A stretch of DNA of 64,000 bases from Squalus acanthias (Eukaryota), in NCBI GenBank assembly GCA_030390025.1, contig CM059432.1:10478001-10542000 (forward strand), in the 5' to 3' direction. Shown here in pieces: positions 14,365-56,787 of the stretch. A program made the position numbers and the translations under genes. Below the pieces are notes generated by a model. It was given only the letters and a program-made list of their open reading frames with translations, did no database searches and was not told the origin of the DNA. How positions within the stretch are numbered: position 1 is the first letter of the stretch; each line of letters begins with the position of its first letter.

Positions 14365-14985
14365 TTACAACCACAAGAACAATGTGCATTTATAACTCGC
14401 TTTTAACTTACCAAAAACGTGCCAAGCAATGTTCCCTCTAATTTTGGGGGGGGCGCGGCCCCTTTAACAGGCTGCACGGCCCATTCAAATTTCCACACAT
14501 GCGCGTTTTTTTCCATTTATAAGCCGGTGAGTGACCTCCACGGGACCTCCAGACCGCTGCACGGGACCTCCAGACTGCTGCACGGGACCTCCAGACCGCT
14601 GCACAGGACCTCCAGACCGCTGCACGGGACCTCCAGACCGCTGCACGGGACCTCCAGACCGCTGCACGGGACCTCCAGACCGCTGCACGGGACCTCCAGA
14701 CCGCTGCACAGCTGCGCGGCCGCACAGCTTAACGGGAGCATTGGCGCTCAACAAGAACAACATCAATGAAAACATTTTTTGACACCGAGCCACATAAGGG
14801 GATATCAGGGCAGCTGACCAAAAGCTCGGTCAAAGAGGTAGGTTTTAAGGAGCGTCTTAAAGGAGGAGAGAGAGAGGTGGAGCGGCGGACAGGTTTAGGG
14901 AGGGAATTCCAGAGCTTAGGGCCCAGGCGGCTGAAAGCACTGCCGCCGATGGTGGAACGATTAAAAACGGGGATGCGCAAGAGGG
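14365..14985 (-). mobile_element. L2 LINE 3' end, interrupted by a MITE
   Basis: ORF 14729-15007 IGGSAFSRLGPKLWNSLP, plus the tail homologous to 57062-57179. Confidence 0.8.
14427..14743. mobile_element. hAT-like MITE containing a 21-bp tandem array
   Basis: TIRs CAATGTTCCC / GGGAGCATTG. Eight copies of CACGGGACCTCCAGACCGCTG at 14539-14706. Confidence 0.7.
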
Positions 14986-16650: not shown

Positions 16651-17585
16651 ATCCTCCAACTCACTGTGAGCACCGCCATGGGAGATCTTCTGGGCCAGTG
16701 ACAAAAAGCACTGCCAACAGATACATTTCCCACGCTCTCCTGGCCGGCCTCCCACCTTGCTCCCTTCGTAAACTTGAACTCATCCAAAACTCTGCTGCCC
16801 GTCTCCTAACTCGTACCAGGTCCCGTTCACCCATCACCCCCTGTGCTCACCTCAACGCCTCGATTTTAAAATTCTCATCCTTGTTTTCAAATCCCTCCCT
16901 GTCTCTGTAATCTCCTCCAGCCCCACAACCCTCCAAGATCTCTGCCCTCCTCCAATTCTGGCCTCTTGCGCATCCCTGATTTTAATCGCTCCACCATTGG
17001 CAGCCGTGCCTTCAGTGGCCTGGGCGTTAAGCTCCAGAACTCCCTCCCTAAACCTCTCCGCCTCTCTACCTCTCCCTCCTCCTTTAAGACACTCCTTAAA
17101 ACCTACCTCTCTGACCAAGCTTTTGGTCATCTGTCCTAACATAAGAACATAAGACGTAGGAGCAGGAGTAGGTCATTTGGCCCCTCGAACCTGCTCCGCC
17201 ATTCAATAAGATCATGGCTGATCTGATCTTGGCCTCAACTCCACTTCCCTACCCGCTCCCCATAACACTTACCTTTCAAAAATCTGTCTGTCTTCACCTT
17301 AAATATATTCAATGACCCAGCCTCCACAGCTCTCTGGGGAAGAGAATTCCAAAGATTCACGACCCTCTGAGAGAAGAAATTCCTCTTCATTTCCGTTTTA
17401 AATGGGTGCCCCCTTATTCTGAAATTATGCCCCCTAGTTCTAGATTCCCCCACAAGGGGAAACATCCTCTCTGTATCTACCGTGTCAAGCCCCTTCAGGA
17501 TCCTATATGTTTCAATAAGATCCCTTCTCATTCTTCTAAACTCCAATGAGTATAGACCCAACCTGCTCAACCTTTCTTCATAAAG

Positions 17586-17805
17586 TGGACATGATGCGGA
17601 GATGCCGGTGTTGGACTGGGGTGGACAAATGTGAGAAGTCGCACAACACCAAGTTATAGTCCAACAGCTTTATTTGAAATCACAAGCTTTCGGAGCGCTG
17701 CTCCTTCGTCAGACTTCACCTGATGAAGGAGCAGCGCTCCGAAAGCTTGTGATTTCAAATAAAGCTGTTGGACTATAACCTGGTGTTGTGCGACTTCTCA
17801 CATTT
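17586..17805. mobile_element. Non-coding Penelope-derived hairpin element
   Basis: 86-bp inverted arms at 17627-17712 and 17720-17805 with a 7-nt spacer and an asymmetric tail shared with 22060-22093. TSD TTTCTTCATAAAG at 17573-85 and 17803-15. Confidence 0.9.
17716..17752 (+). ncRNA. Minimal type I hammerhead ribozyme motif
   Basis: TCAC-CTGATGA-A-GGAGC agc GCTCC-GAAA-GCTT-GTGA: both core boxes present, helix II 5 bp, helix I TCAC/GTGA. Confidence 0.82.
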
Positions 17806-20508
17806 CTTCATAAAGACAACCCTTTCATCTCCGGAATCAACCTCGTGAACCTTCTCTGAACTGCCTCCAATGCAAGTATATCCTTCCTTAAATAAGGAGA
17901 CCAAAACTGTACGCAGTACTCCAGGTGTGGTCTCACCAACGCCCTGTACAGTTGTAACAGGACTTCCCTACTTTTATACTCCATTCCCTTTGCAATAAAG
18001 GCCAACACTCCATTTGCCTTCCTAATTACTTGCTGTACCTGCATGCTAACTTTTTGTGATTCATGTAAAAGGACCCCCAGATCCCTTTGTACCTCAGCAT
18101 TCTGTAATCTCTCCCCATTTAATTAATAATTTGCTTTTTTATTTTTCCTACCAAAGTGGATAACCTCGCATTTTCCCACATTATACTCCATCTGCCAGAT
18201 TTTTGCCCACTCACTTAGCCTATCTATATCCCTTTGGATATTCTTTGTGTCCTCCACACAATTTGCTTTCCCACCTATCTTTGTATCATCAGCAAATTTG
18301 GCTATCCGAGTCATTAGTATAGATTGTAAATAGTTGAGGCCCCAGCACTGATCCCTGTGGCACCCCACTAGTTGGTTTGCCAACCTGAAAATGACCCATT
18401 AATCCCGACTCTCTGTTTTCTGTTAGTTAGCCAATCCTCTATCCATGCTAATATATTACACCCAACCCCGTGAGCTCTTATCTTGTGTAGTAACCTTTTA
18501 TGTGGCACCTTATCGAATGCCTTCTGGAAATCCAAATACACGATATCTACTGGTTCCTCTTTATCCACCCTACTCATTACATCCTCAAAGAACTCCAGCA
18601 AATTTGTCAAACATGATTTCTCTTTCATAAAACCATGCTGACTCTGTTTGACTATATTATGATTTTCTAAATGTCCTGCTATCACTTCCTTAATGATGGA
18701 CGCTATCATTTTCCCAACGACAGATGTTAGGCTAACTGGTCGATAGTTGCCTGCTTTCTGTCTCCCTCCTTTCTTAAATAGGGGCGTTACATTTACGGTT
18801 TTCCAGTCCGTTGGGACCTCTCCAGAATCCAGGGAATTTTGGTAGATTACAACCAATGCATCCACTATCTCTGCAGCCACCTCTTTTAAGACCCTAGGAT
18901 GCAGGCCATCGGGTCCAGGGGACTTGTCCACCTTTAGTCCCATTAGTTTGCCTAGTACTTTCTCTCTAGTGATAGTGATTGTTTTAAGTTCCCCCTCTCC
19001 CCCCCCCCCCCGGCCCAATAACCCCTTGATTATCCATTATTGGGATGCTTTTAGTGTCTTCTACCATGAAGACAGATACAAAATATTTGTTCAAAGTCTC
19101 TGCCATTTCCCTGTTTCCCATTATTAATTCCCCAGTCCCATCCTCTAAGGGACCAGCATTTACTTTAGCTACTCTCTTCCCTTTTATATACCTGTAGAAG
19201 CTCTTACTGTCTGTTTTTATATTTCTTACTAGCTTACTCTCAGAAGCTATCTTCTCTCTCTTTATCATTTTTTTAGTCGTCCTTTGCTGGTTTAATACAT
19301 GGTTCGGTGTCAGGTTTTGTCTGGTAACACTCCCATGCAGCGCCTTGGGACATTTTACTATGTTAAAGGTGCTATATAAATACAAGTTGTTGTTGTTGTT
19401 ACTGTGTAGAATGGCTAGTAATATCTCGCTTGGAGGTGGGAGAGATGAGATGGTAGCGTTATATATGTGGGAAAGAGAACGTGGTTCTGTTTTCCCTACA
19501 TTACAATAACAGTGACTACATTTATAAAGTATTCCATTGGCTACAAATCACTTTGGGACGACCGGAGGTCATGAAAGGTGCTTTGGAATGCAAGTTCCTT
19601 CTCCTTTATGAGCACAGAAAACAAAAATTATTCAGTTATCACCATCCTCTTCGAACTTAATCAGTCACAAGAGTCTTTACCATATTCATCATATTAACTT
19701 CACTTAGCAATCATTTAAATGTAGGTCCTCCTCTCCTATTGGCTTGACTTGCCTTGAAGTAATACTCTGAGTTCACATCGATAATGTTTAATATTTTATT
19801 TATCTCAATGTGGGTCTACCTTAAACTTCTCCCCCCTAGACTATAACCTTCTTTAATCTTTTCTCCCAACTCGTCCCTTGGGATCATTCCTGCGCTTCTC
19901 TCTATCCTCGCCAGCGTAACTATCCAAAGAGCCGGCACAGGCACAGTGGGCCGAATGGCCTCCTTCTGTGCTGTAAGATTCTATCCTCAACAACGTCTGC
20001 TCGCCCCCTTTCGAAGAGTGATTGACCAAAGCTGTAAATCATACCCCAGTGTGGTCTAAACGGTCTCCATTTGGACCTGACTTGGACTGAATATTAACAT
20101 TTTCCCCATCTGTATTATTAGCTTCAGAGAATTGAAATCTGAAGCTTCGGGGGCCAGTGACCAGGGGTTGCTGCATGTGTTTTTGGTTAATATGTACACA
20201 GCTCTAGCTTCCTTCACTTTGCAGTAATGCATTCAGGGAAGCTCCCACATCTGACGTTGTTGTTAATCTCATAGAACGATACTGCACAGAAGGAGGCCAT
20301 TCAGCCCGTCGTGCCTGTGCCGGCTCTTTGAAAGAGCCGTCCAATTTGTCCCGCTCCCCCCCCCCACCCCACCCCCTGCTCTTTCCCCCATAACCCCGCA
20401 AATTTCTCCCTCTTCAAGTATTTAGCTATATCTGATAGAACCACCACACTCCATGTAAAATGAGAAGTCGCACAACACCAGGTTATAGTCCAACAGATTT
20501 ATTTAATT

Positions 20509-20547
20509 TTACAAGCTTTCGAAGCAGTTCGCTCCTTCGTCAGGTAA
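20509..20547 (-). ncRNA. Minimal hammerhead ribozyme motif (left arm)
   Basis: Reverse complement of 21969-22007. Confidence 0.8.
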
Positions 20548-20757
20548 GTTAGCAATGAGAGAATCTCCCAGAATTCACAATTTAAACCCAGACAAATTCT
20601 ATTCACATTATTCCCTACAACAAAGAGCACAGCCAAGACAATGAGATGTGTCCCAGTGGGTACAACGTGTCAAACCACCTGCTGGCTGCATATCCTGTCA
20701 ATTTGTGTTCTTGTGTTTAAAAAAAAAACACCTGGGAAGACCGGCCATGATGTCAAG

Positions 20758-21257
20758 TCACGTTCTGTATCGTGACATGAACCCGATATCACGATTGAGG
20801 CCATCCTCATGAGTGGGGAACTTGGCTATCAGTTTCTGCTCTATGATTTTGCGCTGTCGTGTATCTCGAAGGCCGCCTTGGAGAACGCTTACCCGCAGAT
20901 CCGAGGCTGAATGCCCCTGGCTGCTGAAGTGTTCCCCGACTGGGAGGCAACCCTCCTGCCTGGCGATTGTTGCGCGGTGTCCGTTCATACGTTGTCTCAG
21001 TGTCTGCATGGTCTCGCCGATGTACCATGCTCTGGAGCATCCTTTACTGCAACGTATCAGGTAGACAACGTTGGCCGAGTCACATGAGTATGTACCGTGT
21101 ACCTGGTGGGTAGTGTCCTCACGTGTAATGATGGTATCTGTGTCCATGATTTGGCATGTCTTGCAGAGGTTGCTGTGGCAGGGTTGTGTGGTGTCTTGGT
21201 TGCTGTTCTCCTGAAAGATGGGTAATCTGCTGCGAACGATGGTACTTTTGAGGTTAG
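20758..21257 (-). CDS. Penelope GIY-YIG endonuclease, 5'-truncated ORF (left arm)
   Basis: Mirror of 21259-21758: NVVYLIRC..C...YIGET...LRQRMNGHR...E...GLN. Confidence 0.85.
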
Positions 21258-21758
21258 CCTAACCTCAAAAGTACCATCGTTCGCAGCAGATTACCCATCT
21301 TTCAGGAGAACAGCAACCAAGACACCACACAACCCTGCCACGGCAACCTCTGCAAGACATGCCAAATCATGGACACAGATACCATCATTACACGTGAGGA
21401 CACTACCCACCAGGTACACAGTACATACTCATGTGACTCGGCCAACGTTGTCTACCTGATACGTTGCAGTAAAGGATGCTCCAGAGCATGGTACATCGGC
21501 GAGACCATGCAGACACTGAGACAACGTATGAACGGACACCGCGCAACAATCGCCAGGCAGGAGGGTTGCCTCCCAGTCGGGGAACACTTCAGCAGCCAGG
21601 GACATTCAGCCTCGGATCTGCGGGTAAGCGTTCTCCAAGGCGGCCTTCGAGATACACGACAGCGCAAAATCATAGAGCAGAAACTGATAGCCAAGTTCCC
21701 CACTCATGAGGATGGCCTCAATCGCGATATCGGGTTCATGTCACGATACAGAACGTGA
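21258..21758 (+). CDS. Penelope linker plus GIY-YIG endonuclease, 5'-truncated ORF (right arm)
   Basis: Frame is open from the centre: PNLKSTIVRS...PCHGNLCKTCQI...NVVYLIRCSKGC...YIGET...RMNGHR...VGEHF...GLN, typical of the PLE endonuclease with Cys/His motifs. Confidence 0.88.
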   Translation, partial: PNLKSTIVRSRLPIFQENSNQDTTQPCHGNLCKTCQIMDTDTIITREDTTHQVHSTYSCDSANVVYLIRCSKGCSRAWYIGETMQTLRQRMNGHRATIARQEGCLPVGEHFSSQGHSASDLRVSVLQGGLRDTRQRKIIEQKLIAKFPTHEDGLNRDIGFMSRYRT

Positions 21759-21968
21759 CTTGACATCATGGCCGGTCTTCCCAGGTGTTTTTTTTTTAAA
21801 CACAAGAACACAAATTGACAGGATATGCAGCCAGCAGGTGGTTTGACACGTTGGACCCCCTGGGACACATCTCATTGTCTTGGCTGTGCTCTTTGTTGTA
21901 GGGAATAATGTGAATAGAATTTGTCTAGGTTTAAATTGTGAATTCTGGGAGATTCTCTCATTGCTAAC

Positions 21969-22007
21969 TTACCTGACGAAGGAGCGAACTGCTTCGAAAG
22001 CTTGTAA
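21969..22007 (+). ncRNA. Minimal hammerhead ribozyme motif in the PLE 3' terminal repeat
   Basis: TTAC-CTGACGA-A-GGAGC gaact GCTTC-GAAA-GCTT-GTAA. Helix I TTAC/GTAA covaries with TCAC/GTGA in other copies. AATAAA follows. Confidence 0.83.
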
Positions 22008-22509
22008 AATTAAATAAATCTGTTGGACTATAACCTGGTGTTGTGCGACTTCTCATTTTTGTCCACCCCAGTCCAACGCCGGCATCTCCACATCATGTAA
22101 AATGAGTTAGACCGGTGACTATCGTTCGCTTTTCAAAATGCATTCTGTCTGCTCAATTCACACCTCGGGGCCAAAAACCCCAAGTGTCTTTGGATCTGTT
22201 TGCGATGCTAGAGTAATTGGGAACCCTCATTAGATTTAGTGGCACAGACCTGGGAATTAGATTCCATTGATACGACAGCAATAAACACCCGCCTGTACCT
22301 GAGGCATCAGCAAAATTCCTCTCAGGGTTTCTTCCTGAATACTCCGTTGAATGGAATTACTACTGTTTCTGGAACACCTAGGACGTTTCACTGACATGGT
22401 ACAGTCAGAACGCACAGGTCACCAATAAGAGGTCAAAGTGACTCACGTTTTATTCACGTTGACTTTGTGGTTAAATTGCGATTTTCTCATTAGTTTGTAT
22501 TAAAAAAAA

Positions 22510-23526: not shown

Positions 23527-24822
23527 TGTAAGACGTTTAAATTCACCCTTGTCCTTTAACCCGTTCAACAGTTTCCAAAGTCCAGACCCGTCGAACAGAC
23601 AACATAAAGCCCAAGGATTCAGGAATAAATTCCTTTATTTTAAAATCAGCAAGAGGTTACAAGTAAGCTCACACAAAACCGTTACATATAATACTCCCGA
23701 TTATATCTAAGCAGACGCAGATTTATTCCCTTACTTTAGGATCAAGCGATAATAAGCCAACACTACATACGTACTAACACCAGCGAGTGGTGGGTTCGGC
23801 GATAACTAGACGTACGACTTTAACTGGCAACTGACCAACTGACTGCAGCCCCGAGCGTCTTTTTCCAGCATCTTTTATACCTTAAAATTTGGCAAACCTC
23901 CCACAGCATACGTGTTCCCAATTGTGTGAATAATTGTCAATAGTTGTTTTTCTCTTCTTCTTATCAGTGGTCAATCAATCAGTCAGTGGGCCGCAAGGCC
24001 GATTACATTCCAAAGTCTGAGATTGTTCCTGTTTTCGCAACGCCTTAACAGTTCAATAGCTTCTTCTCCACAGAACTCTGAAGGTCTGTTTCCCTTATAT
24101 GTTAAAAGGCAGCTGGCAGCCTTTACATCTTATAACCGTAGCAGACTGTTCTACATTCCAGCAGAAAGTCTCTGTTCCTGTCCAAGTAGATCCCAGGGGT
24201 GCGGACCACCCCACCAGCCGTAGGAGATCCCAACTCCAACCGCCAGCCCACACCTCCCCCACTCCCAGCCCACACCCTCCCCCACTCCCAGCACCAGCCC
24301 ACACCTCCCCCACTCCCAGCCCACACCTCCCCCACCCCCAGCCCACACCCTCCCCCACTCCCAGCCCACACCCTCCCCCACTCCCAGCCCACACCTCCCC
24401 CACTCCCAGCACCAGCCCACACCCTCCCCCACTCCCAGCCCACACCCTCCCCCACTCCCAGCACCGGCCCACACCTCCCCCACTCCCAGCCCACACCTCC
24501 CCCACTCCCAGCACCAGCCCACACCTCCCCCACTCCCAGCCCACACCTCCCCCACTCCCAGCACCGGCCCACACCTCCCCCACTCCCAGCCCACACCTCC
24601 CCCACTCCCAGCACCAGCCCACACTTCCTTTAATGTGTCTAAAATTACAAAGCAGGTCTGACATATCCACCGAATTTTATCAACCGAGGAAAGCGTTGCC
24701 GTAGCAAACCAATCAGAAGAAACATTTCCAAAATATCAATATCTGATATACTTTATTTTCTTTTAATTAAATAAATCAAATTGAATTTTAATTTTAATTT
24801 TCTGTTTGTGACCCATTACTAC
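23527..24822 (-). mobile_element. Possible solo LTR containing a minisatellite
   Basis: Truncates a CR1 abruptly with TGTAAG and has a candidate end CTACA. Minus-strand AATAAA (~23633) and TATA-like (~23875) motifs. No TSD seen. Confidence 0.35.
24244..24623. repeat. C-rich minisatellite, 22-29 bp unit CCAGCCCACAC(C)CTCCCCCACTC(CCAGCA)
   Basis: Direct tandem array; it generates the Pro-rich and Gly/Trp-rich ORFs. Confidence 0.97.
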
Positions 24823-30678: not shown

Positions 30679-31812
30679 GTTTGTCGGAGGAGAACATTCT
30701 GTAGAAATCAATCCGCAGTTGGGCCCAGAACACTGCCCTGAGGAGCTCCTGCAGCGACGTCCTGGGGCGGAAATGGCTGGCTTCGGCATCAAATGGCTGT
30801 GAAGGAGCTGGCACGGCATTGAAACAATAATTGCGTCTGTTGAAGACAGTCAATAGTTGGACACGCTCATTCTCTATACGAAAAGGTACAAAGGAAACAT
30901 TGTGAGCCACGCTGCGCGATGACTAAATCACAGAGTTATTAGATTGTCAGAACGAAGCTTGAAACGTGCAGGAAAAGATAAACTACACTTGGCTTTTTCA
31001 CCGTGTGTGGAGGTTTCCAGGATCAAGGAAATGTTGGAATTGTCAAAATAACCATGAAAATACCAACGGCTTTGAAGGTTGAAATAAAATGCAGAACAGT
31101 GGGCAGCATTTTATAGAGCAGAGGCCATTGAAGGTAACGATAGTAAATGATCAGTCATAATCACTGTTTACAAAGGCCTCAAACTGACAAGAGTAATTTG
31201 CACAGCATGTTACCCCAGCAAACCTATTCCGAGATCGCAAATAACTTCAAGCGAGCGTTGTCGATTCCTTCGGCTGCACGGCCCTGCCAAAGTTTATGAG
31301 GCGTAAAGTATTTTTCAATATTTGCTCTCGACCGGCCTCCAGCAGGCCTTGTACTTGTCAGATTAGCGACACGGGAAGCGCCAGATGGGATGGGACTGGC
31401 ACCGCACAGCGGAGACAGTGAAAAAAAAACCCACCATGTCACAATGATTGCACAGCTGTCCGCCATTAAAATCTTTTACTGCAAATATCAAATGAGCTGG
31501 CGGGTGTCAGAGCCTGGGTTTTAACTCCCGGGTGGGAAAAGCCGGGGTGGGGGGGGGAACTGCCGATCCTCTCGCACGGGAGTCCCGCCCGATTTTAACA
31601 CAGCCGGGCCTCGGTAACATCCCCGCCGACCCCAAAATGGCAGCTGACGGCCCACCCGTGTGGGGAGAGCACAGTGTGTTTGTCGGTTTGTATTATTACA
31701 CGAGGACAAGTCGTACTGGTTGAATTAAATGAGTCCGACCACACCTTCTGCTCTGTACGTTCGCTTGCTGTGAAAATAAAACAGCTTTAACATTTTGCCT
31801 CTGGCCTCCTCC

Positions 31813-31897
31813 CTGAGGAAGGGGCGATCGATAGCTCCGAAAGCTTGTGATTTCAAATAAAACTGTTGGACTATAACCTGGTGTTGTGCGACCTCTC
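31813..31897 (+). mobile_element. Solo Penelope terminal fragment with hammerhead core
   Basis: CTGAGGA-A-GGGGC gatcgata GCTCC-GAAA-GCTT-GTGA followed by ...GTTGGACTATAACCTGGTGTTGTGCGAC. The 5' strand of helix I is missing. Confidence 0.8.
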
Positions 31898-32252
31898 AAT
31901 TTTCTCCTCCTCTGGCCAGCTATTTTTTCTATGTCCACTTTCGAAAAGATTGGAGCGCAAAAGACATGAATTCAGCTTACATCGCGAGGGGGTTAATAGT
32001 GTTGCACCTCTGGGTTGCGCTGTCGTACGGTTAGATATCGGGCAGCATGGGACGCCTCGGGGCGATGCACTGCGTTATAGGGCGCTAGATAAATGCAAGT
32101 TGTTGTTGTTGTAGAGGTTGTTTCCCAATGGCAATCCCTGGCTCCCTCGGCATTGAAACATGACCTTACGTGCAAAGTATTCTGGGACAGCAAGGCTGCT
32201 TGGCGAACACTGAGCCCTTGTTACTGTTCAGATATGCACTGCAAATGACATG

Positions 32253-33150
32253 GGCCGCGATTTTCCCGACCTCGGCAGGTCCGAGGCGGGCGACGTCGGT
32301 GGCGGGTCTCGGCCCCGCTGTTGGCTCCATCCCGGCCTCCGACATGACTTTCCCCTGAAGTGGGTCTGCTGATGACATCAGCCGGTTTCCTTAAAGGGGC
32401 CATGCCCAAATTTATTTTGACAGTTGTGCTGTCACTGTTCTACAGCATTGAGGTGCTGCAGACACTGACAAGCACTGCACAAAGGTGCACGGCTGCACCC
32501 AGGCTCTCCCATGACTCCCTCCATATGCCTATGGAGGGAGTCACTGCACGCAGGGAGGTCCTCTTCTCTTCCCATGGGCGGAAGAGACCTCCCCAGGAGA
32601 TCAATGCAGCCTGGTTGCACATTGCACAGGAGGCCACAAGCAGGGATGTGGTCAGGAGGACCAGGGTGCAGTGCCGCAAACATTTCAATGATCTCAGTAG
32701 ATCACGAAACGTTACTGCAAAGCCACACTCAACCTCATCCTGCTGTGCCACTCATCACATCCCCATCACTCTGCCTTCCCTACCCTACTCCTGCACATCC
32801 TTACTCACACCAATTTACCTTGCACTTCCACCCATCCCTCTCTATCTACCTTATCACTTCCCCATCTCACTAGCCACCCCTCACACTCCCCCTCACCCTA
32901 GTCCAATCATACCAACTAACAACACACAAGGGTAGGCACTTGGGTGTTTTAGCCAATGTTCATGTGAAATTTCTGTTAATGTGCTGTCAAACTTTGAAAT
33001 CTTTATTTTCAACACTCTGGCGGACCTGAAATCGGGAAATGCAGGTGTGCGCAGTTTGACAGCCGGTTCCTGACCCACTGTCAATCATTTGAAATTTCGC
33101 AGCTGACCCGTCACCAATCAGGCTCGCTGAGCGCCGGCAGAATCACGGCC
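32253..33150 (+). mobile_element. Harbinger-derived element, family B, short copy
   Basis: TIRs GGCCGCGATTTT / AGAATCACGGCC. Collinear with 60491-62268 but internally deleted. Confidence 0.85.
32470..32710 (+). pseudogene. Myb/SANT-like (trihelix) DNA-binding domain of Harbinger ORF2
   Basis: AAPRLSHDSL...V.ARREVLF...AAWLHIAQEATS...RTRVQCRKHFNDL in ORF 32360-32935, the W..IA / QCRK.FNDL pattern of MSANTD/NAIF1-like domains. Confidence 0.82.
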
Positions 33151-45432: not shown

Positions 45433-47106
45433 GGGGGAAAAATTTGTGTTCGCCAGCAACTGCAGTTAACGGCCGCTGGAAATGGCCACAAAGCTAACCA
45501 AGTAAAATTGGTCTGGGGGTGTGCGTGGAGGTAGGTGGTGCACTGCTCACCTTCCATGTTGGTGGCGTTGCTGGAGGGATCCGAGATGAAGTTCCTGCCC
45601 AGGTCCGGCGTTGCAGCCTCTGAAAGCGAAGCTGTAGAGCTCACGAGGAATTGTGCGTAATGAAGAGGTCTGTGAATTAAAGGGGCCATGCACACTGAAG
45701 CAATACAAAATAAAATGCAGTGAATCAAAACATTTTTCAGCCCTTTCTGCCTTTTAAAAAATATCCAACATTTAAAAGAAGTTCCAAATGTGAATATTCA
45801 GCTCTTAAAGCTGAATTACCTTCCTAACCTCAACAAATGGGAAAACTGCCTCAGCACTAACACAAATGGCTCAGCAAGCCAGGGAAGGGGCACCCATGGT
45901 CTCACACGCGGCACTCCAGCTTTGTGCAGGGGGTCAACACTGCAAGAGTGGCCCTCTACCCACAGGGGCCAGGAGGCCGTCCAGAAAGCACGATGTGGGA
46001 GTACATCACTAAGACCGTCACTGCCACCACCTGGCTCCAGTGCCCAAAGAAGCTTCATGACCTCAGACCACTGGTCAAGGTCAATGAATGCATCTTCAAA
46101 AGCCGTCACTTACCAACTGCACCACTAGCCTCACACACTGCTCAATGCACAACCCCCAATCACTCACCTACCAACAATCTGCACCAATGACGAGGCACAT
46201 TCCTAGCCTCACCTCATCCCCTTGGAGGAGACAGTGCAGGCCATTCTTGGCAGGGGCACGGTTGAGCCCTTGGCCAGCAGCGGGGCTGAAAGAATACAAG
46301 ATGCTGGTATCCTCCTACGTTGTCCTCCTCCTGGCATGCACCTCCAGGTTTCCTGCCCTCCAGTCAGCACAACTCCACCCTTGTGCCTTCCTCATTTCAC
46401 ACACCCAAGAAATGCAGCCTGCCCAGCCAGTGGGACCACAGGCGGATGATTCCATCCCGGATATCCTGGCCACAAAGGAGCTGTCTGGGATGCATCCTTC
46501 CATCTGATTCCTCCTCTTCGGCTTCCTCCTCTTCTGTGTCTTCCTCTTCCCTCTGCAAGTGGATGCTGTAAATGTGAAATGACAGCATAAAATGCTGGAA
46601 ATACTCAGTCGGTCAGGCAGCATGTCGACCTGAGACGTGAACTTTGTTTTTCTCTCCACGGATGTTGCGTGACCTGCTGAGTATTCGCAGCATGTTCTGT
46701 CTTCTCAAGGACCGTCATTTACCATCTGAGCCCTTGCAAGCATCCAGCAGCACTCCTACACACTTAAAAAAAAAAATTCACCTGACTTCACCTGACGAAG
46801 GAGCAGCGCTCCGAAAGCTTGTGATTTCAAATTAAACTGTTGGACTATAACCTGGTGTTGTGCGACTTCTCACATTTGTCCACCCCAGTCCAACACCGGC
46901 ATCTCCACATCTTGGTGAAGTTAAGTCGGCGTTGCACGCGGATTGACGTCACAATGCTGCCATTTTTTTTCCAGCAGCGCAAAGGGGGAGAGGAATATGG
47001 CGGCTGTTGTGGGACCCGCCACCAGCTGGCGAAAGCGCAGCGGCCACCATTTTATCGCCATTTCATGGCGCTACGGAGTGTCAGTAAGGAGATAAATTTC
47101 TAGCCT
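45433..47106 (+). mobile_element. Harbinger-derived element, family A, copy 2
   Basis: Reverse-complement homologue of 2045-3696 with probable TSD TAG. Myb/SANT-like remnant in ORF 45924-46190 (MWEYITKTV..TWLQCPKKLHDL). Confidence 0.85.
46784..46910 (+). mobile_element. Solo Penelope terminus with intact hammerhead motif (46788-46824) and tail
   Basis: TCAC-CTGACGA-A-GGAGC agc GCTCC-GAAA-GCTT-GTGA ... GTCCACCCCAGTCCAACACCGGCATCTCCACAT. Absent from copy 1 of the host element. Confidence 0.88.
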
Positions 47107-55373: not shown

Positions 55374-56179
55374 CATTTGGTTATTAGATTCAGTCTTAAA
55401 TAGTGTGTCCAATTTAGGTCTCTTCACGTGGTGGGTGAGACTGAGGCTTTGGAAAGGGTTCAGAGAATGATTCCCAGATTAAAACACCTTAGCTACCCAG
55501 ACAGACTTAAAGAGCTGGGTATGTATACTTTAGAGAGGCGTAGACTCAGCGGCGATTTGATTGAGGTCCACTAAATAATGAAAGGACCAGTTTGTGTGCA
55601 CTCTGACAAATTATTTCAATATGATAGGTTGGAGAGGACTATAGGGTCATGTGTATAAATTTCACAAGGGAAGAAATAGGTTAGATTTCAGCCATGATCT
55701 TATTGAATGGCGGAGCAGGCTCGAGGGGCCAAATGACCTACTCCTGCTCCTACGTCTTATGTTCTTATGTATGTTCTTATATTAAGGGGTTCTTCTTTTC
55801 CTGTAGAATAGTAGACCTCAGGACCAAGTTGTCGGCTTGTGTGGTGAGCGCTGATTCACTGCACATATTCTAAAGAGAGCTGGACCCATTACTAGCTCGA
55901 GCAGAGATCACATCATACAAGAGTTAGATACCAAATAATAGAAGTCATTGTCAGGGTGACCTTCTGGACTAGTTTCAATCGCCTAGATGGATTGGAGATG
56001 AATTTTCCAGATTTTTTTTCCCCCCCACTAATTAGCCTTTGATCTGGTTTGATTCTTCTCTCAGGAGACTACATGGCGCCCGGGGGGTTTGTGGTGGGGA
56101 GGTGCAGGGGTGAGGGAGTCTCTTGCCGTGATGCATAAGGCATCGCAACTATATGGGGCAGTCTAGATGGACCAGCATG

Positions 56180-56787
56180 TCAATAACCAGGGGGCATAGA
56201 TTTAAAATAATTGGTGGAAGGATTAGAGGGGAGTTGAGAAGAACTTTTTTCACCCAGAGGGTGGTGGGGGTCTGGAACTCACTGCCTGAAAGGGTGGTAG
56301 AGGCAGAAATGCTCATCACATTTAAAAAGTACTTGGATATGCACTTGAAGTGCCATAAGCTACAAGGCCAAGGATCAAGAGCTGGGAAGTGGGATTAGAA
56401 TCATAGAATCATAGAAAGTTACAGCACGGAAGGAGGCCATTTCGGCCCATCGTGTCCACGCCGGCCAACAAAGAGCTATCCAGCCTAATCCCACTTTCCA
56501 GCTCTTGGTCCGTAGCCCTGCAGGTTAGAGCATCCCAAGTGCACATCCAAGTACTTTTTAAATGTGGTTAGGGTTCCTGCCTCTACCACCCTTTCAGGCA
56601 GTGAGTTCCAGACCCCCACAACCCTCTGGGTGAAGAAATTTCCCCGCAAATCCCCTCTAAACCTTCCCCCAATTACTTTAAATCTGTGCCCCCTGGTTTT
56701 TGATAGGCTGGATAGCTCTGTGTCGGCCAGCACAGACACGATGGGCCGAATGGCCTCCTTCTGTGCCGTAAATTTCTATGATTCTAT
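56180..56787. mobile_element. CR1 3' end (+) interrupted by an antisense CR1 3' end (56398-56703)
   Basis: ORFs 56153-56398 (+) and 56485-56739 (-). The plus-strand 3'UTR resumes at ~56704. Confidence 0.88.

Follow-up and report, generated by a model that had tools for sequence, protein, structure and literature searches.

Head-to-head Penelope-like element ends in Squalus acanthias: a near-perfect palindrome and its possible origin by priming from both ends of the target site

A 64,000-nt stretch of Squalus acanthias DNA (GCA_030390025.1, contig CM059432.1, forward-strand positions 10,478,001 to 10,542,000; hereafter the window, in whose numbering all coordinates are given) carries a near-perfect palindrome at 20452-22106. 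The palindrome consists of 5′-truncated copies, that is, 3′ ends, of a Penelope-like element (PLE) of the Neptune/Nematis type. We propose, with moderate confidence, that reverse transcription was primed on one RNA, at sites about 38 nt apart, by the two 3′ ends that a staggered 13-nt cut had left, and that the far ends of the two cDNAs were then joined. Inverted pseudo-long terminal repeats (pLTRs), tails, target site duplications (TSDs) and junction palindromes of endonuclease-bearing (EN+) PLEs are already in print (Arkhipova et al., 2013, PMC3846280; Craig et al., 2021, PMC8557442). How PLEs make the inverted repeats and tails is named as unresolved in PMC8557442, and the steps after priming are left open by Frangieh et al. 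(2024, PMC11167929). Through the window locus one reaches a young and very large family whose junctions can be counted to test this origin, and these counts favour priming from both target ends over published self-priming.

The two 801-nt arms pair with 0 gaps and exactly 7 mismatches around a single C, the only base separating them. A previous reading of the letters without database searches (the sequence-only reading) had described such a palindrome with about 7 mismatches and had suggested an inverted-repeat search, in which the palindrome proved by far the longest of 292 pairs in the window, the runner-up reaching 373 nt. Both arms hold an open 166-aa frame, a hammerhead core and AATAAA, and the right arm alone carries a tail of 34 nt (22060-22093), or 38 nt with the CATG common to the TSD; that reading had reported the open frames, the two motifs and a one-sided tail of about 34 nt. 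The 13-bp TSD, CATGTAAAATGAG, occurs at the two outer ends and at no other place in the window. Its overlap with the left arm end, noticed earlier, amounts to 8 nt, and a further overlap of 4 nt exists at the right end, so that the RNA matches the target at 12 of its 13 bases. At the centre, comparison with family copies places both the start of the right arm and the end of the left arm at 21257, giving a 1-nt microhomology and a 1-nt loop, and the tailed arm is 2 nt longer there than the tail-less arm.

The palindrome shape is routine and is the commonest form of the family, and the window locus is thus ordinary, because similar palindromes were found at all four positions tested and head-to-head pairs are frequent. 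A 35-nt motif from the element 3′ end is matched exactly at 64,776 places in the 3.7-Gb assembly, and the first 100 of these places comprised 29 head-to-head pairs (58 places), 2 tail-to-tail pairs and 4 same-strand pairs. If the start of contig C1 is typical, about 19,000 head-to-head pairs are expected genome-wide by extrapolation. Palindromes with arms of 700-900 bp centred within 30 nt numbered 4 at the window site, itself included, and 2, 2 and 1 at three control sites, and TSDs of 12-15 bp flanked 6 of the 8 others. The rarity implied by the sequence-only reading does not hold. A hot spot at the centre was also considered, 4 palindromes lying within about 16 nt of the window centre against the 2, 2 and 1 of the control sites, and was rejected.

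Junctions were examined in 90 loci drawn from the first places on contig C1 that match an exact 55-nt tail motif (5,154 matches), five flagged rows being left out (3 internal inversions, 1 mis-paired, 1 duplicate). The sample contained 51 simple head-to-head and 37 single insertions, 51/88 being a lower bound as some singles are cut by the locus edge. TSDs were 12-14 bp long in 43 of the 45 head-to-head insertions whose TSD reached at least 11 bp (one two-tailed pair was left out), and the element 3′ ends fell in two fixed zones, q795-804 and q836-848, with q counted from 21258 in the sense direction. Overlap between TSD and element came to 2.2 nt at the tailed end and 1.6 nt at the tail-less end, compared with 0.70/0.82 nt when TSDs were swapped among loci (maxima 1.33/1.22 in 2000 swaps), and the standard deviation of TSD length was 0.97 with the overlaps counted versus 1.75 without them. 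The left-end microhomology of 8 nt at the window locus exceeds all 45 sampled on that side (maximum 5). Furthermore, tail-less single copies ending near q800 with 12-bp TSDs were present among ten earlier loci checked (L009, which equals L035, and L014), and L036 was recognized by eye; q~800 therefore primes first strands by itself. No tail-less single with its own TSD was found among L146-L175. A staggered cut leaving 3′ overhangs, each priming at its own RNA zone, would fit these outer ends.

The relation between the arms bears on how the second arm was made. Of 46 junctions, 27 had a tail-less arm that extended further 5′-ward than the tailed arm, the largest difference being 958 nt; the arms were equal in 4, and the tailed arm was the longer in 15 (29/6/16 of 51 by BLAST ends). 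Since each arm in these 27 junctions has sequence private to it, upstream sequence in the tail-less arm and the tail in the other, neither arm is a copy of the other. This contradicts, as a general mechanism, simple fold-back or the self-priming on an antisense template hypothesized in PMC3846280, in which the second arm is copied from a strand synthesized earlier and the far end is closed by microhomology. The sequence-only reading had likewise proposed fold-back from a 5′-truncated cDNA, and the window locus taken singly is compatible with it: the tailed arm contains the tail-less arm, the left end has its 8-nt microhomology, and two unique variants are shared by the arms. However, fold-back requires a 1-nt loop at this locus, gives no reason for the copy always halting at q795-804, leaves the tail-less singles with TSDs unaccounted for and fails for most sister insertions, and we consider it quite improbable.

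The arms of one insertion are nevertheless coupled. Their 5′ ends lay within 30 nt of each other in 27 of 51 pairs, versus 7.3 by permutation (maximum 16 in 5000), and in 12 of 33 pairs of longer arms, versus 4.0 expected. Arms within one insertion were 98.8% alike, compared with a median of 93.5% to other loci (best other copy 98.7%), and shared one subfamily even if short or far from symmetric. At 53 centres, microhomology of at least 1 nt was found in 35, inserts in 15 and blunt joints in 3, the null mean of centre microhomology being 0.68 nt; the null comes from mapping against one reference copy, and the junction counts come from library-based mapping because subfamily differences distorted single-reference mapping.

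Considering these results, we propose the following scenario for the window locus. The GIY-YIG endonuclease, probably as a dimer, would nick both strands 12-14 nt apart and leave 3′ overhangs. Pairing with the RNA would then involve 8 nt (q794-801) for the top-strand end and 4 nt (q836-839) for the bottom-strand end, and both reverse transcriptases (RTs) would copy one RNA, halting at nearly one place (q1 and q-1). The cDNA 3′ ends may anneal, or RT may jump between them, via 1-4 nt (1 nt here), each cDNA templating the second strand of the other, and fill-in would yield the palindrome, the one-sided tail and the TSD. In agreement with this scenario, PMC11167929 describes an anole Poseidon protein, a predicted dimer, that in vitro cuts and extends both strands and starts RT at two sites bounding the tail.

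A mixed route, in which both ends prime, one cDNA runs far and snaps back, and its sense copy anneals to the short cDNA of the other end, so that one truncation and one snap-back set the centre, is unlikely in our view, though a competitor to be taken seriously. It lets either arm be longer, accounts for the coupled 5′ ends and the same-subfamily arms, and would make the two unique variants common to both arms RT errors that were mirrored. It requires, however, a loop of at least 3 nt, unless the centre was trimmed later, whereas the loop was shorter in 8 of 31 centres, 3 of them without any loop; the window locus has 1 nt, and a further zero-loop palindrome lies on C12. Nor are the variants private to one insertion but shared by its arms gathered near the centre (mean relative position 0.59, n = 13). 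Apart from this comparison, two further loci deserve mention. The perfect palindrome at L140 (C9, 134.74 Mb) has as its centre a 12-bp palindrome native to the element, at which snap-back would be feasible. The head-to-head insertion at L031 1577-6138 (C7, 25.43 Mb) is 4.5 kb long; its 1967-bp arms are 99.9% alike and are separated by a repeated insert of 34 nt.

Variants shared by both arms weigh against priming from both target ends. Those at 21700/20816 and 21919/20597 are present in both arms and nowhere else in the assembly, as searched with exact 29-30-nt patterns. Three explanations would account for them: a source copy that is lost or missing from the assembly, RT errors mirrored between the arms, and gene conversion. 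Several points weigh against our scenario. The two variants follow directly from arm-to-arm copying, while double priming needs an absent source copy or later conversion. Over 18,282 sites in 66 pairs there were 13 shared-private variants versus 89 arm differences, and the former lean to symmetric palindromes (10/13, p = 0.02); the lean is gone after removal of the window locus and two divergent ones (3/6, p = 0.42), a comparison that is underpowered. Library-based mapping can overstate microhomology, as for two values of 8 and 10 nt. According to PMC11167929, initiation in vitro proceeded without homology to the cleaved DNA, unlike the 1-4 nt (8 at the window locus) seen at the genomic junctions. 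Our scenario would also oblige the PLE RT either to displace the leading cDNA or to draw on a second RNA. The loci sampled were the first 90 on a single contig and were chosen by an exact match to the tail, and no intermediate was observed. Alternatively, two RNAs or two separate events could have supplied arms that gene conversion later made alike, to which we assign only a small probability. The shared variants could then be converted mutations, and the weak lean to symmetric palindromes would agree; against conversion, one TSD spans both arms, the arms belong to one subfamily even where short or asymmetric, 7 differences were left unconverted, and the 5′ ends are coupled.

Relative to the family majority, 4 of the 7 mismatches lie in the left arm and 3 in the right, 3 are at CpG, and the divergence is about 0.4% per arm. 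The mismatches look like later mutation, and the insertion seems young rather than new, in line with the age given by the sequence-only reading. That the palindrome is a fold-back chimeric read or an assembly artefact has next to no probability: the two sides have different flanks, and in its TSD, one-sided tail and mismatches the locus conforms to the family, an argument already made in part by the sequence-only reading; the same build recurs in dozens of loci. Read-level evidence was taken from Logan contigs of three DNA runs (X1, X2 and X4) from two samples. Among the matches listed, no contig bridged the filled junction or the centre, as an artefact would predict, but these samples may lack the insertion. 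Single-copy contigs of X1, X2 and X4 match 20359-20464 and then depart, exactly at the TSD end, for 337-442 letters, a length that fits the distance to the next repeat of the right flank in X2 and X4 (2/3). The contigs of these two other samples thus appear to hold the empty site. In one further run, presumed RNA, no sign of transcription of the locus was seen, but the unique left flank of the locus had no cover there, hence the run has no bearing either way.

The identification as the 3′ end of a PLE was made because an RT frame of the family ends in the window peptide, the CCHH and linker motifs are present, the predicted fold is I-TevI-like and the hammerhead is of a minimal type, which upholds the identity proposed in the sequence-only reading. 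At 99% identity, the window peptide matches the C-terminal end of the RT-EN frame of L031, elsewhere in the genome; the longer copies L031 and L036 match RVT_1 (Pfam), and the window locus itself is without RT. The nearest named proteins are from sharks (Heptranchias, 91%; Scyliorhinus, 84%). Pfam GIY-YIG gave no match for the 166-aa peptide itself, and the profile check thus succeeded only at the level of the family, 6 of 15 aligned members matching. An alignment-based structure model of the peptide reached a pLDDT of 89.9 (29.7 for the single-sequence model), and its best match in PDB was I-TevI (TM 0.84 on target, rmsd 2.0, E 0.012), ahead of UvrC, EndoII and Eco29kI; no match reached E 0.001. 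Of the motifs that define EN+ PLEs in PMC8557442, CCHH in EN reads YLIRC-x3-C...YIG, NGH and EHF in the window peptide, and DKG before RT reads ADKGG in L031. The linker finger Cx2-5CxxC occurs as CHGNLCKTC, its outer C27 and C32 being invariant in 97 sequences, which places the element in Neptune/Nematis and not in Penelope/Poseidon. We take Neptune to be the likely clade, going by vertebrate distribution. The tandem unit L053 reads from the tail into the open reading frame (ORF), which starts at the ATG closing the tail, and shows the pLTR arrangement of tandem or inverted copies with a tail of 34-38 nt, within the 30-40 bp expected. Having neither RT nor the ORF start, the window copy is likely inert.

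The hammerhead core (21973-21999 on the plus strand, 20517-20543 on the minus strand) and its stems were found in 128 arms, stem II varying; the right copy has a stem I of 4 bp, CUGANGA, stem II, GAAA and a palindromic helix III. Rfam returned no hammerhead match, its sole match being a chance sRNA produced by the palindrome. The build is that of the minimal PLE hammerheads described by Cervera and de la Peña (2014, PMC4209133), sharing with them the CUGANGA/GAAA core, the extra base after position 9, the palindromic positions 15.2-16.2 and the variable stem II. Unlike those, the window copies lie on opposite strands, so that a transcript would have one sense ribozyme and no cis dimer, and read-through RNA of the locus would bury the hammerhead in duplex. 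In the sample, 5′ ends of tailed arms cluster at q705-720, just before the hammerhead (11/88, L047-L136), with a few more at q741-746, the predicted ribozyme cut; the cluster may mark the RNA 5′ end behind the many palindromes of about 200 bp. Priming can also be internal, as is shown by some tails that continue into the ORF for as much as 13 nt. By eye, 22050-22097 looks like a branch point, pyrimidine tract and AG acceptor before the ORF ATG, possibly a retained intron of the 5′ untranslated region, and no RNA joint for it was present among the matches listed.

In LINE-1 twin priming, both target strands prime on one RNA, and the cDNA ends are joined by microhomology with the TSD kept, as proposed here for the window element. 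The second LINE-1 primer lands far inside and inverts a different part of the RNA, whereas the two sites of the window element are about 38 nt apart, and the same part copied twice would give a palindrome. The EN+ PLEs of PMC3846280 and PMC8557442 resemble the shark element in having an inverted 5′-truncated copy at the 5′ end, a 30-40-bp tail at one end, a TSD, palindromes where the inverted copies meet and head-to-head tandem forms; the window locus differs in that both arms are truncated at almost one base, leaving an 801-bp stem. Those papers propose antisense self-priming or resolution by EN, whereas our counts speak for priming by the two ends of the target. The Poseidon element of Anolis carolinensis (PAc; PMC11167929) is alike in its two tail-bounding RT starts, the cutting and extension of both strands, the hammerhead near the ORF start and AT-rich targets. 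PAc starts lie 111-118 nt inside the ORF, whereas the distal start of the shark element is at the ATG, and PAc belongs to the Penelope/Poseidon clade without the linker finger that the shark element has.

Whether PLEs in general integrate by symmetric double priming, with an RT-endonuclease dimer, a 12-14-nt staggered cut, one RNA primed at two sites about 38 nt apart, 1-4-nt target-RNA pairing and mutual templating of the cDNAs, seems to us evenly poised. If so, inverted pLTRs, the one-sided tail and junction palindromes would be explained in one step; the model would replace antisense self-priming and would have seeded the genome with about 19,000 hairpin-forming inserts. No double-priming model for PLEs was found in the literature searched, which did not extend to older reviews (Arkhipova, 2006; Evgen'ev & Arkhipova, 2005) that may discuss one. 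More speculatively, thousands of inverted repeats of 0.1-2 kb per genome would matter for shark genome stability, dsRNA load and assembly quality.

Table 1. Features of the window palindrome and of a smaller family palindrome upstream
Feature	Position	Strand	Source
Left TSD copy, 13 bp; last 8 nt also read as element sequence (reverse complement) from the tail-less priming zone	20452..20464	+	
Left, tail-less arm; element 3′ end, q1-801	20457..21257	-	
AATAAA, left arm	20498..20503	-	
Putative minimal type I hammerhead motif, left copy	20509..20547	-	Descriptor from PMC4209133
166-aa open frame: Cx4Cx2C linker and predicted GIY-YIG endonuclease, without RT	20758..21258	-	
Palindrome centre	21258..21258	.	
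166-aa open frame: linker and predicted GIY-YIG endonuclease	21258..21758	+	
Right arm, q1-801	21259..22059	+	
Variant common to left arm (20816), Arg to Pro, unique in the assembly	21700	+	
Second variant common to left arm (20597), unique in that context	21919	+	
Putative minimal type I hammerhead motif, right copy; predicted cut 22003/22004	21969..22007	+	Descriptor from PMC4209133
AATAAA, right arm	22013..22018	+	
Tail; ends on ATG 22095-22097, the ORF start in tandem copies	22060..22097	+	
Right TSD copy; shares its first 4 nt with the end of the tail	22094..22106	+	
Small palindrome, tailed arm	17586-17712	-	
Small palindrome, tail-less arm	17713-17802	+	

The small palindrome, a second head-to-head insertion of the family, lies 2.7 kb upstream at 17573-17815; it has a 13-bp TSD and is embedded in a dispersed repeat. 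Other short fragments from the 3′ end of the family occur at 46782-46914 and 31812-31918. No host gene was found in the 59 frames scanned of the 73 window frames of at least 110 aa, a search that short exons would escape. One frame, at 32348-32935, contains a Myb/SANT-like domain (PF13873, E 1.7e-4), possibly of DNA transposon origin. Tandem arrays with units of 10, 21 and about 23 nt occupy 1-1650, 14494-14745 and 24180-24670 and give long open frames. Finally, a 227-nt inverted repeat, 86% complementary with an 86-nt spacer, lies at 56172-56711 within a LINE-like repeat.

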